Shown in pieces: positions 21,072 through 62,450 of a stretch of DNA of 64,000 nt. The stretch lies in assembly GCA_963663965.2 (NCBI GenBank), contig CAXXFK010000011.1:199667-263666 (forward strand), written 5' to 3'. Each line of letters begins with the position of its first letter. Within the stretch, counting starts at the first letter, position 1. The notes under the pieces are model-generated. The model did no database searches. It was not told the DNA's origin and was given only the letters and a program-made list of their open reading frames with translations. A program made the translations under genes and the position numbers. The stretch is from Sedimentisphaerales bacterium. GTDB taxonomy: Bacteria; Planctomycetota; Phycisphaerae; Sedimentisphaerales; SM23-30.

Positions 21072-21100
21072 GAAAACAGTTAATTGACAACAGAATAATT

Positions 21101-21258
21101 GCATTCAGGCGGCCGCAAGGCCCTAACAGGGAAGACGGTTAGATTCCGTCACGGACGCGCCGCTGTATTCGGGGACGAAAGCCAGTCCCAGCCACTGTCG
21201 AAAGATGGGAAGGCCTGGCAAGTAGGATGAACCGTAAGTCAGAAGACCTGCCTGAATC
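21101..21258 (+). promoter_or_regulatory. Cobalamin (B12) riboswitch
   Basis: AACAGGGAA-gacggt..ccgtc, CGCTGTA, GCCACTG..GGGAAGGC and B12 box AAGTCAGAAGACCTGCC; P1 ATTCAGGC/GCCTGAAT; anti-P1 TCAGGCAGGTC at ~21302-21312. Confidence 0.92.
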
Positions 21259-21352
21259 ATGACTCCGTACCCTAACAGGTTCCATGGCTTCGCGCAACAA
21301 GTCAGGCAGGTCAACCGTCTATTCTATCATTTCAGAATAGTCCGAATGTATC

Positions 21353-27552: not shown

Positions 27553-27850
27553 TTTTTTGTCAGATCTCAAATTTCAAATCTCAGATCCCCTTCCCCCCCG
27601 AACCATAACCATCCTGCCCATATTTATTCCCGTGGCACGGGCATCTTGCCCGTGATTATCTTCCCCTCCGTAAGGGCAATCCCCCGTGGTTGCCCTTCTT
27701 AAATTTTTCCCAATCACATATTTCTACCGTTCAATCCCCAATTTCCCCCGCAATCCACCATCACCCATCCGTTTTGTTTATTTATCAAATCTCAAATTTC
27801 AAATCTCAGATTCCACTCTTCCCGCATCACACTTATCCTGCCCGTGATTG
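27553..27850. repeat. Intergenic repeat cluster: duplicated ~60-bp heptamer-containing unit plus two REP-like palindromes
   Basis: CA(G/A)ATCTCAAATTTCAAATCTCAGAT..ATCCTGCCC at ~27561 and ~27787; palindromes at 27632-27654 and 27670-27697. Confidence 0.7.
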
Positions 27851-29610: not shown

Positions 29611-29826
29611 TCGCGGCTTTGTGTGAACTATTTCTTCTTTTGGTTGCGGCTAGGCTTTATAAAACTCAGTGATTTTTATTTTTTTGACAACACCAAAATC
29701 AACATAATTCTTTAAAAAATAAACTATTAAGAACAAAACCACCGATTTTTCTTTCTAATATTAGCTGCTACAAAAAAATAAATCCACAAATATTATGTTA
29801 TATAAAACGAAAACAGATTATTTGAT

Positions 29827-29855
29827 TTGCTTTTAAATAAAACTCGGTCTATAAT
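29827..29855 (+). promoter_or_regulatory. Sigma70 promoter of module copy A
   Basis: TTGCTT-17 bp-TATAAT; same position as the copy B promoter. Confidence 0.7.
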
Positions 29856-29860
29856 ACCAA

Positions 29861-30650
29861 AGTCGCCCTAATAGCCCTCAAACCCCCGGTGTGCCCCACA
29901 CCCAACCAGCCACGCCCGCAGAGATTCTCTGCGCATGGACTGTGGCGCCTTCAAGCGCTTGTGGGTGCTTACCTGGCCTAGGGCTATCTGATGCGGACCA
30001 GACCCAACCAGCCAATTTATTTTGGCTGTTTTAACAATACGAATGAAATGGGATATACAAATATGACACAACCCGACAACCCAGCCATAAAAGGCTTGAA
30101 AAGCCGAAAGTTCCTAGCCGGGGTCCGTAAGGCCCCGGATAACGATGGTAATTTTATTTTAAACCCACGCCTCGCAGAGGCGTACCGACAGGATTTCGCA
30201 CCGGAGGCGAAAAATAAAACCAGCCATAAGCACAGCGAATACCAACATAAAACGTTGAGCGCAGCGAAATCCCGATCTATCGGGAAAGCCAACGATGAAA
30301 ATAATGACCCTAACCTCAACAACCAAATAAGCTTAACAAAAAATAAAAACTCATCCACCTCAAGGTGGATACAAATAATATCTCGAAGAGATCAAAAGTG
30401 CATAGCCCGCCAATTCATTGGCGGGAATACCCGAACCCGAGTTAGAAAATTTTAAACCCACGCCTCGCAGAGGCGTACCGACAGGATATCTCGCAAAAGA
30501 GATAGATAAAACCAACATGAGCGCAGTGAATACCAATGCAAAACGAAACAAACCCAATGCTTAAAATTATTGCCATAACATCAATAAAAAATTGACTTTA
30601 ACGAAACCCGAAACCATCAGGCTAAAACATATAACAATCTTTTAACAGGA
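29861..30650 (+). ncRNA. Putative structured leader/ncRNA of module copy A (5' domain plus ~1.5 tandem units starting at 30158 and 30451)
   Basis: Homologous to 60504-61600; many hairpins with compensatory changes between copies; no conserved ORF. Confidence 0.5.
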
Positions 30651-30660
30651 GGTACCAACC

Positions 30661-31500
30661 ATGTCATCTTCACTACGAAGACTACGCGCCAACCGTCGTA
30701 ACGCTCAGAAATCCACCGGCCCCAAAACCCCCGAAGGCAAGGCCATCTCATCCAGAAATGCCATCAAACACGGCCTCAGCGGCCAGGACCCCGCCCACCT
30801 CATCGTCCCCGGCGAATCCGAACTCACCTACCTCGAGTTCCGCGCCGCATTGCTGCAAGATCTCAAACCCACCACCTATCTCCAGCGCCACATCGCCGAC
30901 CAGATCGTCTCGGCCGCCTGGCGATTGGAACGAATCGGCCGTATCGAAGCCGAACTGATCGACGCCCGCGTTTACCAACTCCGCCTCACCAACGAAGAAA
31001 TCCGCAAAGACACCGTCATCGATCAACCCTTCGCCCACTCCAGCATCTACCTGCCACGCCACAACGAGGTCGGCGCCGCCTTCACCCTCGAAACCCCCGC
31101 TTTCAACTGCCTGGCCCGCTACGAAACCCACCTCAACCGAATCTTCCAGGCCAAACTCAAACTCCTGCAACAGTTGCAATTACAACAAAAACCAAACGAA
31201 CCCAATACCTACCCGCCAGAGTACCCATTTCCCGACCTGCCCCGCGTCCACATCCCCGATCCCCCCAGAATCCCCACGCACCCCAGCGAAGCCAAACTCG
31301 CCCCCGAATACATCAAAGACCGACTCCCCGAATTGATGAAAGACCACAGCGTAACTGACGACCAGGTCTTCAGTTACGCCTGCAACCGCTACGAAGCCCT
31401 CAACACGTTTGCGAACCAGAACGGCGAAGAAGCCCTCCACGCCCTCGGCATCCCCACCAAACCACCCGCCGATATCCCCATCCAGGAGAATAAGAAATAA
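30661..31500 (+). CDS. Uncharacterised 279-aa protein with N-terminal NAQKSTGPKTPEGK..NAIKHGL motif (HGGxSTG-like), copy A
   Basis: AACAGGAGG RBS; 9 aa differences from copy B with many synonymous nucleotide changes. Confidence 0.85.
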   Translation: MSSSLRRLRANRRNAQKSTGPKTPEGKAISSRNAIKHGLSGQDPAHLIVPGESELTYLEFRAALLQDLKPTTYLQRHIADQIVSAAWRLERIGRIEAELIDARVYQLRLTNEEIRKDTVIDQPFAHSSIYLPRHNEVGAAFTLETPAFNCLARYETHLNRIFQAKLKLLQQLQLQQKPNEPNTYPPEYPFPDLPRVHIPDPPRIPTHPSEAKLAPEYIKDRLPELMKDHSVTDDQVFSYACNRYEALNTFANQNGEEALHALGIPTKPPADIPIQENKK

Positions 31501-58341: not shown

Positions 58342-59464
58342 ATGACAACCGAAACCCATAAAGACATAGCGAAATATCGACAGATATACACCAGCGTTCA
58401 CGAGGACATCACCAACGGTCGCTACCATTTCGGCCAGCAGCTCCCCACCGATATGGAACTGGCCGAGCAATTCTCCGCCTCCCGCCCCACCGTTGCCAAG
58501 GCACTCGGCGCCCTCCAGAAACAGGGGCTGGTCGAACGGCGTATCGGTTCCGGTACCTATGTCCGCTACGGCCGCAAAGATCGCCAGCTCCTCAATCTGG
58601 CGCTGCTCATTCCCGGCCTGGGCGAAACCGAAATTTTCGAGTCCATCTGCGGCCACATGGCCCATCTCGCCGAAGAAAAACAGTTCAACCTGGTCTGGAG
58701 CGGCTCCATGGCCGATGATGCCGAAGCCCGCCGGCGCCACATTGAACAACTGGCCGCGCGCTACGTCCAGCAGAAAGTCGACGGCGTCTTCTTCGCCCCG
58801 CTCGAACTCACCTCCGAAAAAGACACTGTCAACGAACATATCGTCTCCCTGTTTGAAAATGCCAGCATCCCCGTCATCCTCATGGACCGCGACATCGCCG
58901 CTTTTCCCAACCGCAGCCCATACGACCTCGTCGGCGTCGACAATTTCCGTATCGGATACCTCATGACCCAACACCTGATTTCTCAGGGCTGCCGGCACAT
59001 CACCTTTGTCGCCCGTCCCTTCTCAGCCCCGACTGTCGACATGAGAATCTGCGGCTACAAGGAAGCGGTTAATCGCATGACCTCAACGACAGATTTCGAT
59101 AATGCCATCGATGTCCACATCGGCAACGTGGATGACACAGCCGGTATCGAAGCCCTCCTCAAGCGCACCCGCCGACTAGGTATCGTTTGCGCCAACGACA
59201 CCCACCGCCGCCCGCCTCATGCAAACCCTCAACCACCTCGGCTGTTCCATCCCCGGCGACGTCGCCGTCGTCGGTATCGACGATGTTAACTACGCCAAAT
59301 ACCTCCAGCCCGCCCTTACCACCTACCGCCAGCCCTGCCAGGCCATCGCCAAAACCGCCATCAACCTCATGCTCTCCCGCATCGACGACAACCAACTCCC
59401 CGAACGCACTGTCTACCTTGATGGTAATCTCATCATCCGAAAATCCTGCGGCGCCACCGGCTGA
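58342..59464 (+). pseudogene. GntR-HTH/LacI-type sugar-binding regulator (AraR-like) with a +1 frameshift (real or assembly error)
   Basis: Removing one C from CCC at 59201-59203 gives CANDTTAARLMQTL..IPGDVAVVGIDD..PALTT, a 373-aa protein. Confidence 0.85.
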
Positions 59465-59617: not shown

Positions 59618-59659
59618 GTGGTTCACCCTCAAGCGTAACGCAGTGTAGCTTGTGGGTGC
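59618..59659 (+). repeat. REP-like palindrome
   Basis: GTGG foot followed by CACCCTCAAGC...GCTTGTGGGTG; lies just upstream of the RAYT-like remnant. Confidence 0.55.
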
Positions 59660-59727
59660 AATAACGCTGCGATCGAAACAGGCGGACAATGGAAGATTGG
59701 CTATGACACGAAACAAGAAACAGACTT

Positions 59728-59868
59728 ATGGAGACGAATAACGGCTATCGTAAGAAACGGCATGCGTTCAATACACCGGGCCATTCGCGTGAGCAGACTT
59801 TCAGTCGCGTGGGCAATTCGTGGCGGCCAATCTGTGATTTGCCCATGTTGTTTATGGATGGACCATGA
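59728..59868 (+). pseudogene. Possible internally deleted remnant of a REP-associated tyrosine transposase (RAYT)
   Basis: 46-aa ORF METNNGYRKKRHAFNTPGHSREQTFS.. resembles the RAYT N-terminus (R...PGH.HELTFSC); no HUH or catalytic Tyr remains. Confidence 0.4.
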
Positions 59869-59928
59869 GAAAGATACATGAGGCTGCCCGACTGTCTATA
59901 ACCACAAGAGTTTCATTGACATTAGAGA

Positions 59929-60112
59929 GGCCCGACGGGCCGGGAGTTTTTAGCCGTGGCCGTGAGGCCTCGGAAAAGGATGACGAGGAAAACAGAGCCC
60001 TGAAGGGGCGAAAGAAGTTTGTTAAAGAGGAACGATTTGATTAAAATATTCTGTTGGCCCTTCGGACCTTACGAATACCATGACCCTGCATTCCGGAGCC
60101 TGACCCTGCCGG
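59929..60112. repeat. Degenerate composite palindromic repeat (GCCC-GAAG-GGC hairpins)
   Basis: GGCCCGACGGGCC..TTAGCC..GCCCTGAAGGGGCG..GGCCCTTCGGACC; related fragment at 21551-21592. Confidence 0.5.
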
Positions 60113-60261
60113 CCAGTTCACCGCCGGCCCCACCCGGAACCACCTACCGCCTGACCGCCATCACCCGCAGCGGCTACCGGCTGTTCCCGGAAAAACCCCG
60201 GCGACCAGCTTTTATGAATCACGGTGAATACTAGTTTAAAGACATTACCCCAAAGATCTCC

Positions 60262-60409
60262 TCCCATATTTCCCATAAATCCCATTATTCCCATCATTCC
60301 CATCATTCCCATCATTCCCAACCCAATTCCACCGCCATATTCACCATAACAACATACATTTCAGTACCTTATACCCACATACGTCCCATCGGTCCCATTT
60401 GTCCCATAT
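60262..60409. repeat. 9-mer tandem repeats
   Basis: TCCCATnnn x7 (60262-60324) and GTCCCATnn x3 (60383-60409). Confidence 0.85.
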
Positions 60410-60469
60410 TTAATCATAACGCAACTTAAATATATTTGTGTTTTTATTACACAATACTATATATTTTAT

Positions 60470-60498
60470 TTGACTATATCGCAACACCAGTCTATAAT
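60470..60498 (+). promoter_or_regulatory. Sigma70 promoter of module copy B
   Basis: TTGACT-17 bp-TATAAT followed by the conserved AGTCGCCC.AATAGCCC. Confidence 0.75.
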
Positions 60499-60503
60499 CC
60501 CAC

Positions 60504-61600
60504 AGTCGCCCCAATAGCCCCAAACCACCCGCCAACCCCCGGCGTGCCCCGCACCCACCCGGCCACGCCCACAGAGCCCTCCTGCGCATTTTTTGGGGTA
60601 GGCTGTGTGCCGGGTGCCACCCTTCAAGCGCAGCTTGTGGGTGGATTCTTCGCCTTGTGAATTCCAATATGAAATCTGGTATCCAACCAGCCAACTTGTC
60701 GTGGCTGTTTTAACAATACGAATAAAATGGAAATCAACTAACTAAAACAACCTGACATGCTGATTGTAAAAGGCCCGAAGGGCCGACGCCGGGGTCGTAA
60801 GGCCCCGGTCAGCGATAGAAGTTTAATTTTTTTAAACCCGCGCCTCTCCGAGGCGTACCGACAGGATTTCGCACCGGAGGCGAAAATTAAAACTAACCAT
60901 GAGCGCAGCGAATACCAACACAAAACGAAACAAACCCAACATGAAAAAATATCGCCCTAACCTCAACCAAGAATTGAGCTTAACAAAAAATAAAAAAATC
61001 ATCCGCCTCAAAGCGGATACAAATAATATCTCGGAGAGATCAAAAGCGCATAGCCCGCCAATTCATTGGCGGGAACACCCGAACCAGCGTAGAAAATTTT
61101 TAAACCCACGCCTCGCAGAGGCGTACCTGCAGGATTTCGCACCGGAGGCGAAAGATAAAACGAACCATGAGCGCAGCGAATACCAACATAAAACGAAACA
61201 AACCCAACATGAAAAAATATCGCCCTAACCTCAACCAAGAATTGAGCTTAACAAAAAATAAAAAACTCATCCGCCTCAAGGCGGATACAAATAATATCTC
61301 GGAGAGATCAAAAGCGCATAGCCCGCCAATTCATTGGCGGGAATACCCGAACCAGCGTAGAAACTTTTAAACCCACGCCTCGCAGAGGCGTACCGACAGG
61401 ATTTCGCACCGGAGGCGAAAGATAAAACCACCATGAGCGCAGCGAATACCAACACAAAACGAAACGAAGCCAATGATGAAAATAATGGCCCTAACCCCAA
61501 CAACGAAACGAGCTTAACAAAAAATAAAAAAATCATCCGCCTTGGGGCGGATACCACAATTTTGCATTTTAAATTCTAAATTTTAAATTTCTAAACAGGA
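60504..61600 (+). ncRNA. Putative structured leader/ncRNA of module copy B
   Basis: 5' domain homologous to copy A, followed by the tandem array. Confidence 0.5.
60831..61554 (+). repeat. Tandem array of ~268-bp units (2.7 copies)
   Basis: Units start TTTAAACCC at 60831, 61099 and 61366 (periods 268 and 267). Confidence 0.95.
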
Positions 61601-61610
61601 GGTACCAACC

Positions 61611-62450
61611 ATGTCATCGTCACTAAGGAGACTCAGAGCCAACCGTCGTAACGCCCAGAAATCCACCGGCCCCAAAACCCCAGAAGGCAAGGCCATCTCA
61701 TCCAAAAACGCCATCAAACACGGCCTCAGCGGCCAGGATCCCGCCCACCTCATCGTCCCCGGCGAATCCGAACTCACCTACCTCGAGTTCCGCGCCGCGC
61801 TGCTGCAAGACCTCAAACCCACCACCTATCTCCAGCGCCACATTGCCGACCAGATCGTCTCGGCCGCCTGGCGCCTTGAACGGATCGGCCGTATCGAAGC
61901 CGAACTGATCGACGCCCGCGTCTATAAACTCCGGCTCACCAACGAAGAAATCCGCAAAGACACCGTCATCGACCAGCCCTTCGCCCACTCCAGCATCTAC
62001 TTACCACGCCACAACGAAGTCGGCACGGCCTTCACCCTCGAAACCCCCGCCTTCAACTGCCTGGCCCGCTACGAAGCCCACCTCAACCGAACCTTCCAGG
62101 CCAATCTTAAGCTCCTGCAAAAGTTGCAGTTACAACAAAAACCAAACGAACCCAATGGATATCCCCCAGAGTACCCATTTCCCGATTTACCCCGCGTCCA
62201 CATCCCCGACCCACCCAGAATCCCCACGCACCCCAGCGAAGCCAAATTGGCCCCCGAATACATCAAAGACCGACTCCCCGAATTGATGAAAGACCACAGC
62301 GTAACTGACGACCAGGTCTTCAGTTACGCCTGCAATCGTTACGAAGCCCTCAACACGTTTGCGAACCAGAACGGCGAAGAAGCCCTCCACGCCCTCGGCA
62401 TCCCCACCAAACCCCCGGCCGACATCCCCATCCAGGAGGTTAAGAAATAA
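61611..62450 (+). CDS. Uncharacterised 279-aa STGPKTPEGK-motif protein, copy B
   Basis: Same AACAGGAGGTACCAACC leader as copy A; ~97% aa identity (9 of 279 differences by eye). Confidence 0.85.
   Translation: MSSSLRRLRANRRNAQKSTGPKTPEGKAISSKNAIKHGLSGQDPAHLIVPGESELTYLEFRAALLQDLKPTTYLQRHIADQIVSAAWRLERIGRIEAELIDARVYKLRLTNEEIRKDTVIDQPFAHSSIYLPRHNEVGTAFTLETPAFNCLARYEAHLNRTFQANLKLLQKLQLQQKPNEPNGYPPEYPFPDLPRVHIPDPPRIPTHPSEAKLAPEYIKDRLPELMKDHSVTDDQVFSYACNRYEALNTFANQNGEEALHALGIPTKPPADIPIQEVKK

Follow-up and report, generated by a model that had tools for sequence, protein, structure and literature searches.

The array of hairpin-bearing units near the end of the window (the 64,000-nucleotide stretch of a Sedimentisphaerales genome analysed here) is the leader of a dispersed small element, composed of a left end, a sigma70 promoter, one to three shuffled units and a 279-aa ORF. 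The explanation that we tentatively prefer is that of a selfish multicopy element, in which a TerS-like gene is combined with its own pac-like sites and which borrows phage packaging. It is possible, if rather doubtful, that this is an undescribed kind of minimal selfish DNA, pairing a TerS-derived ring protein with a 12-bp pac-like site conserved across phyla, and existing as 26-75 intact recombining copies free of any transposase. A literature search, with most subscription journals outside its range, found no description of such an element; searches by protein motif and by HGGxSTG gave nothing, and searches by DNA motif strings gave papers unrelated by title.

The tandem array itself is real, with a period of 268, 2.7 copies and 92% matches at 60830-61554 (TRF). 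The sequence-only reading had placed the whole feature at 60831..61554 and had called it a non-CRISPR array of units of about 268 nt. The call holds, in that there are no short repeats with unique spacers: the units are alike over their whole length, and the segments between motifs recur at other loci. The feature as a whole is wider than the array, extending from about 60211 to 62450. On the forward strand it begins with a left-end signature (60211..60226; consensus CTTTATAAAACACAGTG, from alignment of 22 upstream regions), followed by a sigma70-type promoter, TTGACT-17-TATAAT (60470..60498), common to 49 element starts in the genome; the two are about 260 nt apart in the subtype found at 60211, and about 170-190 nt apart in most copies. 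Two leader modules come next, L2 (60615..60645), the palindrome of which is that of the REP-like inverted repeats flanking a Y1 transposase gene at C30:221195, and L4 (60769..60808), which resembles the repeats flanking another such gene at C32:102700. TRF and alignment then delimit unit B1 (60830..61097, in the order H1, H2a, motif, palindromic arm, H3, H4, H5), unit B2 (61098..61364, also examined by folding) and unit B3 (61365..61554), which ends after H3. A ribosome-binding site, AGGAGG (61597..61606), precedes the ORF, P0001 (61611..62450), whose product is all-helical with an N-terminal STGP..EGK..N..KHG module. The leader is probably transcribed, because the promoter is conserved, and an RNA role for it is possible.

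A second copy of the element lies in the window at 29656..31500 on the same strand, with the left end at 29656, the promoter at 29827, a related array at 30157-30640 and the ORF P0002 at 30661-31500; its motifs are at 30546 and 31194. Short tandem repeats of 7-14 nt lie in or beside the elements (60262-60320, 61566-61595, 27553-27823), and similar ones flank homologs in other genomes.

The 7.24-Mb genome contains 26 full-length, stop-free copies of the ORF, with 92-100% amino acid identity to P0001, as well as one 3' fragment and one 5' fragment. The intact copies sit at unrelated loci, and their neighbours are unrelated host genes. Between promoter and ORF there is one unit in 6 elements, two in 11 and three in 9, only the proximal part being counted where an insertion interrupts the leader. 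The right end, TGCGC, is found about 73 nt past the stop codon in 17 of the 26 copies and is absent from both copies in the window. Module clusters without an ORF end make up 20 of 46, and some of these represent one half of a leader that an insertion sequence has cut in two. Three leaders are split in this way (C36:7694-6069, C3:50186-48561 and C28:397577-398934), and in two of them the same IS110-like element is inserted at the same module, which suggests that this element targets the leader; the labels IS110-like and ISL3-like come from reading of the ORFs, not from a scan.

Each unit is assembled from alternative modules, either H2a or H2b, and either of two spacers, H4-H5 or H6-H7, in all combinations. 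Sharing of alleles between B3 and unit A1 of the second array, and between B1-B2 and unit A2, had been noticed from the sequence and is visible in the alignment; the shuffling of units between loci that was proposed on this basis is borne out by the free combination of hairpin and spacer alleles, with joints that recur in independent short-read contigs. Site-specific cassette exchange at the motif is not supported, as each H2 allele pairs with both spacer types (23/17 and 18/9).

The five hairpins that had been ascribed to every unit fold as described in B2, at -60.6 kcal/mol (z -3.9; 0/200 shuffles equally good), but the set is complete only in B1 and B2, B3 being without the last two; the third hairpin of B1 has a mismatch. 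The opposite strand of B2 also folds (z -2.2; 8/200 shuffles). The structure-preserving changes quoted earlier are seen in the alignment, but covariation, checked as both-sided stem changes among genome-wide matches, is scant: 2/48 for H3, 1/69 for H1 (five mis-registered H1 matches were not taken as changes), 0/35 for H4 and 0/27 for H5. Genome-wide, the stems are almost invariant, and variation is in the loops. The fractions of H1-H5 found within 600 bp of the motif are 70/84, 33/38, 36/43, 57/66, 25/33 and 28/36, with such neighbourhoods making up 2.6% of the genome, and the exceptions listed are array remnants. Two small palindromes are also found as inserts elsewhere in the genome. The five GC-rich hairpins thus look like REP-like DNA palindromes that accreted between sites, outside the functional core; they are probably transcribed and may damp expression.

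These data bear on the proposal that the units are processed, structured RNAs which neutralise the product of the ORF. Type III antitoxins are short pseudoknotted repeat RNAs of 34-57 nt, processed to unit length. The layout of ToxIN, CptIN and TenpIN consists of a promoter, tandem structured repeats and one ORF, as here; the hairpins fold well on the sense strand, and an intact ORF in every copy would suit an addiction module. The 268-nt mosaic units differ from type III repeats, however, and covariation is scant, as just described. The ORF has no match of ToxN, AbiQ, TenpN or CptN type, an Rfam search of the units gave no family at gathering score, and most homologs have no upstream array, keeping only the motif, on either strand. 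Moreover, arrays of the motif also occur 3' of an unrelated ORF family (see below). A toxin-antitoxin system of this kind is therefore very improbable, and that part of the sequence-only reading is not supported.

The A-rich stretches between hairpins, previously taken for linkers, are indeed A-rich, but they are no filler. Each carries the motif AAAC[GA]AA[CG]CCAA, which is conserved across phyla, and the stretch in B2 has in addition a sixth, imperfect palindrome. The copies in the window array are at 60928..60939 (AAACAAACCCAA), 61196..61207 and 61462..61473 (AAACGAAGCCAA), all on the forward strand, and a fourth, at 62144..62155, lies inside the ORF just past the conserved domain, a position found family-wide. 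There are 258 copies in the genome, against about 7 expected under an order-5 Markov model, 106 of them in module clusters and 152 outside. Dereplication of the outside sites leaves 120, of which 37 have TAA[CG] at +30 and 38 have [ACG]TTA at +51; only one pair of opposite-strand motifs within 1 kb was found.

The linkage between gene and motif extends to homologs. The motif follows closely on the conserved domain, at 350-1100 nt past the STG codon, in 89/131 homologous loci versus 6/386 control windows, that is, in 48/74 genome loci versus 5/296 controls and in 41/57 metagenome loci versus 1/90 controls; loci that were too short had been dropped, 6 of 80 from genomes and 23 of 80 from metagenomes. 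The loci span Acidobacteriota, Planctomycetota, Alphaproteobacteria and Chloroflexota, and they are not independent, because many of them belong to one clade. The linked motif may be on either strand, in different frames or past the stop codon, and its orientation at the 3' end of the gene is mixed (33 forward and 16 reverse; 31 and 10). A second 9-mer enriched in homologs proved to be coding conservation in one clade. In the streamlined genome of Pelagibacter HIMB058 a single family gene is present, with the motif right past its stop codon.

The amplified motif also keeps company with the gene at the level of whole genomes. Among 41 related genomes, at least 30 copies of AAACRAASCCAAT are found in 4/9 of those with the gene and in 0/32 of those without it; the four rich genomes, from three families, have 156, 130, 78 and 32 copies, and the maximum in the 32 gene-negative genomes is 10. 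The other five gene-positive genomes, several of them incomplete, have 0-3 motifs. Genome G030 contains two gene matches and many gene-less derivatives made of promoter plus array (18 stretches read). A Bryobacterales genome (G305), despite 75 gene matches, has only 5 canonical motifs; motif variants, chosen after inspection, accompany 14/20 and 15/20 copies of its two subfamilies. Since the motif is kept as DNA on either strand, is linked to the gene and is amplified only together with it, it is most simply read as the candidate binding site of that protein.

The protein family is very large and unannotated: a word search finds 969 homologs, and HMMER finds 21,933 clusters when sequences are grouped at 50% identity; the gene is present in 8/40 relatives. 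Comparison of P0001 with Pfam, PHROG, PADLOC and the sequences in PDB yields nothing named, and no NCBIfam model scores above cut-off. A Pfam scan of 120 homologs gave no match, PF01797 included; no recurrent fused domain is found in 37 longer homologs, the phrog_9231 profile has no match in 201 genomes, and NF041373 has none in the own genome. The AlphaFold model of P0001 is all-helical (pLDDT 73.6, pTM 0.55). Foldseek finds no match to it in PDB or in the viral set at E<=0.001, VIA lists generic helical matches only (best Z 8.2, rmsd 3.1, 79 aligned) with no TerS listed, and the Atlas neighbours are unnamed Acidobacteriota clusters. The invariant or nearly invariant residues are R12, N14, S18, G20, P21, N33, H37, G38, E52, P70, W87 and R91, and Y154 is present in 85% of 257 sequences.

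The lead towards phage small terminases comes from the N-terminal module. Two homologs weakly match one Bacillus phage gene (E 0.9 and 0.2), which directly precedes terL and portal and itself matches three TerS PHROGs. In hhalign comparison with the HGGxSTG-type TerS family the probability is 97.6-97.9% for 42-47 columns at the N-terminus and 3% for the rest of the protein; the likeness ends after about residue 63, and three different TerS PHROGs weakly match 4/119 family members (E 0.002-0.03). A four-copy model of residues 1-180 scores 0.78, compared with 0.00 for the best of three controls (pLDDT 70), on a scale that is rough here, the mark having been reached by 20/30 solved pairs and 1/23 single chains. 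The runs agree in at least 67% of contacts, with two distinct faces per subunit and with residues 1-39 outside the listed interface. The protein is thus predicted to self-associate head-to-tail, although four copies cannot show ring closure. We consider it fairly probable that the protein forms a ring that binds sites of the AAACGAACCCAA type in double-stranded DNA.

A TerS module in a predicted oligomer suggests a hijack of packaging. According to the preferred explanation, the ring protein, seated on motif sites, would recruit the large terminase of an infecting phage, and the chromosome bearing the element would be packaged and moved between cells, as with a minimal pac/TerS satellite. Recombination of incoming with resident copies would produce mosaics, unequal exchange would multiply the site-bearing units into arrays, and gene-less derivatives of promoter plus array would ride along. 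Hundreds of packaging signals would in this manner be seeded in chromosomes, and phage infection would result in directed gene transfer. For this speak the 26 intact ORFs and the selection on them, the linkage of gene and motif, the gene-less derivatives in G030, the N-terminal TerS module, the oligomer model and the viral loci beside TerS-type genes. Known pac sites are 11-19 bp long (PMC11417361), and HK97 TerS binds a 15-bp site that contains an A-tract (PMC10370121).

Several observations speak against packaging. The likeness to TerS is N-terminal only, and no TerL was found in the own genome, which is 94.6% complete, with PF03237 as the sole profile. The mixed orientation of the motif is unlike one-way pac. 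Five gene-positive relatives have next to no motifs, and G305 has many genes and few canonical sites. The family is nearly absent from phages: tblastn against 50,697 phage records gives no match, and IMG/VR contains 3 family loci; terL is not among the recurrent neighbours of 87 family loci. Packaging also leaves unexplained how the element arrives at new chromosomal loci and how a second ORF family comes to share its promoter and motif. This family, P0300, is a multicopy ORFan found at L120:794-1579 (C15:154593) and at some 16 further loci. Its promoter is of the type seen in the element, in some cases its left end is that of the element too, and arrays of the motif lie at its 3' end; homologs of similar length outside the own genome were sought and none was found.

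A scan of viral contigs with RAAACGAACCCAATTT gives 27 loci, 6 of which are beside TerS-type genes, versus 1/80 reversed-motif loci, the control having been compared by peptide pattern alone. The pattern flagged 7/27; two of these were discounted as chance matches, and one locus that it had not flagged was included. Two of the six genes are family members, one is of the HGG type with TerS PHROG matches, and two encode DUF5681, which we take to be TerS-like; at the sixth locus, on a 78-kb contig, the site is about 290 nt before a gene of 160 aa, which is followed by terL. Related YqaJ/ERF elements account for four of these six loci, and in viral contigs the reversed motif outnumbers the real one (120+ vs 27); both points weigh against packaging. 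In PMC8954984, DUF5681 is only listed in a virion proteome. At a number of alphaproteobacterial and viral-contig loci (L102, L103, L076, L083 and L093) an ERF-HNH gene immediately precedes the family gene, and the motif is found just ahead of the start codon; YqaJ is upstream in L102 and L103.

The ORF copies in the own genome are under purifying selection (mean dS 0.28, dN 0.027, dN/dS 0.095 in 325 pairs), with nucleotide identity of 88.9-96.1% among the 26. Among informative site pairs, 56% fail the four-gamete test; in 20 clonal simulations that allowed for heavy homoplasy, this fraction averaged 0.39 and reached 0.55 at most. As the observed fraction is just outside this null, the case for gene conversion rests on the neighbour test, in which incompatibility of neighbouring sites is below shuffled (0.42 vs 0.56, p<=0.0005), and on shared multi-site tracts. 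The copies are old and mosaic. In G305, where 40 of the gene matches were fetched for analysis, the two subfamilies have dS of 0.17 and 0.21, dN of 0.016 and 0.037, and incompatibility of 0.36 and 0.59; ten intact copies of P0300 have dS 0.20 and dN 0.06. An assembly artefact is unlikely: apart from one Y1 copy at 95%, identity among the IS and RT copies of this assembly is 98-100%, and the alleles and joints recur in two public runs. Summed depth in these runs is 40-205 over array and ORF and 0-6 over flanks; this check covers contigs only, from one study, possibly of the source sample. Retrotransposition can be rejected by inference, because the promoter, together with 170-260 nt of the sequence ahead of it, is retained in the copies.

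Purifying selection in the 26 copies and in G305, together with their age and mosaicism, would also be expected of a gene useful to the host and kept multicopy by gene conversion. Such a gene might encode a TerS that acts as a decoy or dominant negative and, along with decoy pac sites, spoils the packaging of phages; alternatively, it might encode a protein that binds the nucleoid and has sites of its own. That the fold can be domesticated is indicated by a single-copy homolog of the helical domain only, possibly domesticated, in 11/11 genomes of one family (L111-L114, L116); this homolog, however, has neither the N-terminal module nor an adjacent motif. The patchy distribution among relatives, the gene-less derivatives and the second ORF family fit selfish spread, and there is no PADLOC match. 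A host function of either sort is distinctly unlikely.

Could the protein itself be a recombinase or transposase of a new kind that acts on the motif plus a downstream palindrome (TAAC-N19-CTTA), with arrays and gene-less derivatives as its non-autonomous substrates, as REPs are for RAYTs? The set of invariant residues and the frequent Y154, the bipartite site, the amplification of the motif only where the gene is present, and the dispersed copies with a common left end all agree with this. But structure searches, which match generic helices only, recognise no catalytic fold, and many of the invariant residues are part of the module common with TerS. A target duplication was not found at any of the 11 elements that have both ends, nor did the paralogous flanks within the own genome yield an empty site. 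There are no near-identical pairs either, the maximum being 96% as opposed to 98-100% for most IS and RT copies, and allele shuffling is not confined to the motif. We regard an enzyme of this type as rather unlikely. Terminal inverted repeats were also sought, and none was found; the left and right ends differ, and a dif-like 11-6-11 site at the element ends gave no match (<=4 mismatches to the dif consensus).

About equally unlikely is carriage in trans, in which the gene would be a passenger cassette moved by resident HUH Y1 (RAYT-type) transposases at REP-like palindromes, and the protein would only bind or protect the site. The match of L2 and L4 to repeats around resident Y1 genes favours such carriage, but these modules are inside the leader and not at the ends of the element. 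P0001 has no PF01797 match, and the 11 Y1 matches in the own genome lie elsewhere. In G305 a 277-copy palindrome is upstream of 31/40 gene copies (16/20 and 15/20 in the two subfamilies) at a nearly constant offset (-245 to -283), with an inverted downstream copy in 7 and 1; it is not beside the two Y1 loci examined, out of 4 matches. Y1 genes occur in 5/5 motif- or gene-rich genomes tested, but they are common anyway (6/14 control genomes), and the cross-phylum motif would be left unexplained. Matches to Acido-Lenti-1 (RF01687) flank Y1 transposase genes (C32:102513-103631, C19:126276), and for this reason the Acido-Lenti-1 'RNA' may be a REP-like DNA repeat; it also matches at 59630-59973 in the window, where the part from 59630 to 59805 matches the beginning of the Y1 locus at C30:221025 with 85% identity.

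Comparison with known systems drew on PMC3733652, PMC11417361, PMC10370121, PMC3174227 and PMC8954984. The closest likeness is to HGGxSTG-type phage TerS with pac, such as BboS125_00065 of Bacillus phage vB_BboS-125: in both, an STGPKT.EGK..N..KHG module is followed by long helices, the oligomer is predicted to be head-to-tail, and a short A-rich site is within or beside the gene. Unlike phage TerS, the family has no Cys-rich N-terminus and no terL, portal or capsid genes nearby; homology past residue 63 is not detected, and the element is chromosomal and multicopy, with its own promoter and with sites multiplied in arrays. In satellites, the TerS of SaPI/PICI redirects phage packaging. The proposed logic, a borrowed TerL and an element-specific site, is that of SaPI/PICI TerS and of PLE, which mimics pac (PMC11417361); unlike them, the element is a single-ORF unit of about 2 kb, present in dozens per genome, with no integrase, replication module or att site.

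With RAYT/REP systems (REPtron, REPIN and TIRtron; PMC3733652) it shares short palindromes, gene-less derivatives that track the abundance of a gene, and the two modules common to local Y1 flanks, but its ORF has no Y1_Tnp/HUH domain, its gene is multicopy, and the conserved motif is non-palindromic. Like insertion sequences and MITEs, the element is scattered over unrelated sites in copies that have the same left end; it differs from them in that a transposase domain, a terminal inverted repeat and a target duplication are all lacking, and in that its copies are old, mosaic and under purifying selection. The features that define type III toxin-antitoxin, IS/MITE, RAYT, satellite, CRISPR and dif elements are, as far as tested, lacking in this element, which by its proposed mechanism most resembles a TerS/pac pair standing alone. 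Its arrays may be present as a cluster in the database of 10.64898/2026.10.21.760802.

The family has no Pfam name, although in Planctomycetota-like and Acidobacteriota genomes its copies have multiplied into the dozens; it hereby gains a candidate site on DNA, an anatomy for the element and a lead from structure. If the packaging explanation is true, the element would rank as the smallest phage satellite of any kind, and would provide pac-like sites for transduction among bacteria of soils and sediments; should the protein be an enzyme, it would stand for new mobility chemistry. Either reading would account for a conspicuous repeat family in these genomes. Elsewhere in the window, a GntR/LacI-type regulator at 58342-59462 is apparently frameshifted near 59200, which may be an assembly error, and a cobalamin riboswitch is located at 21090-21269.
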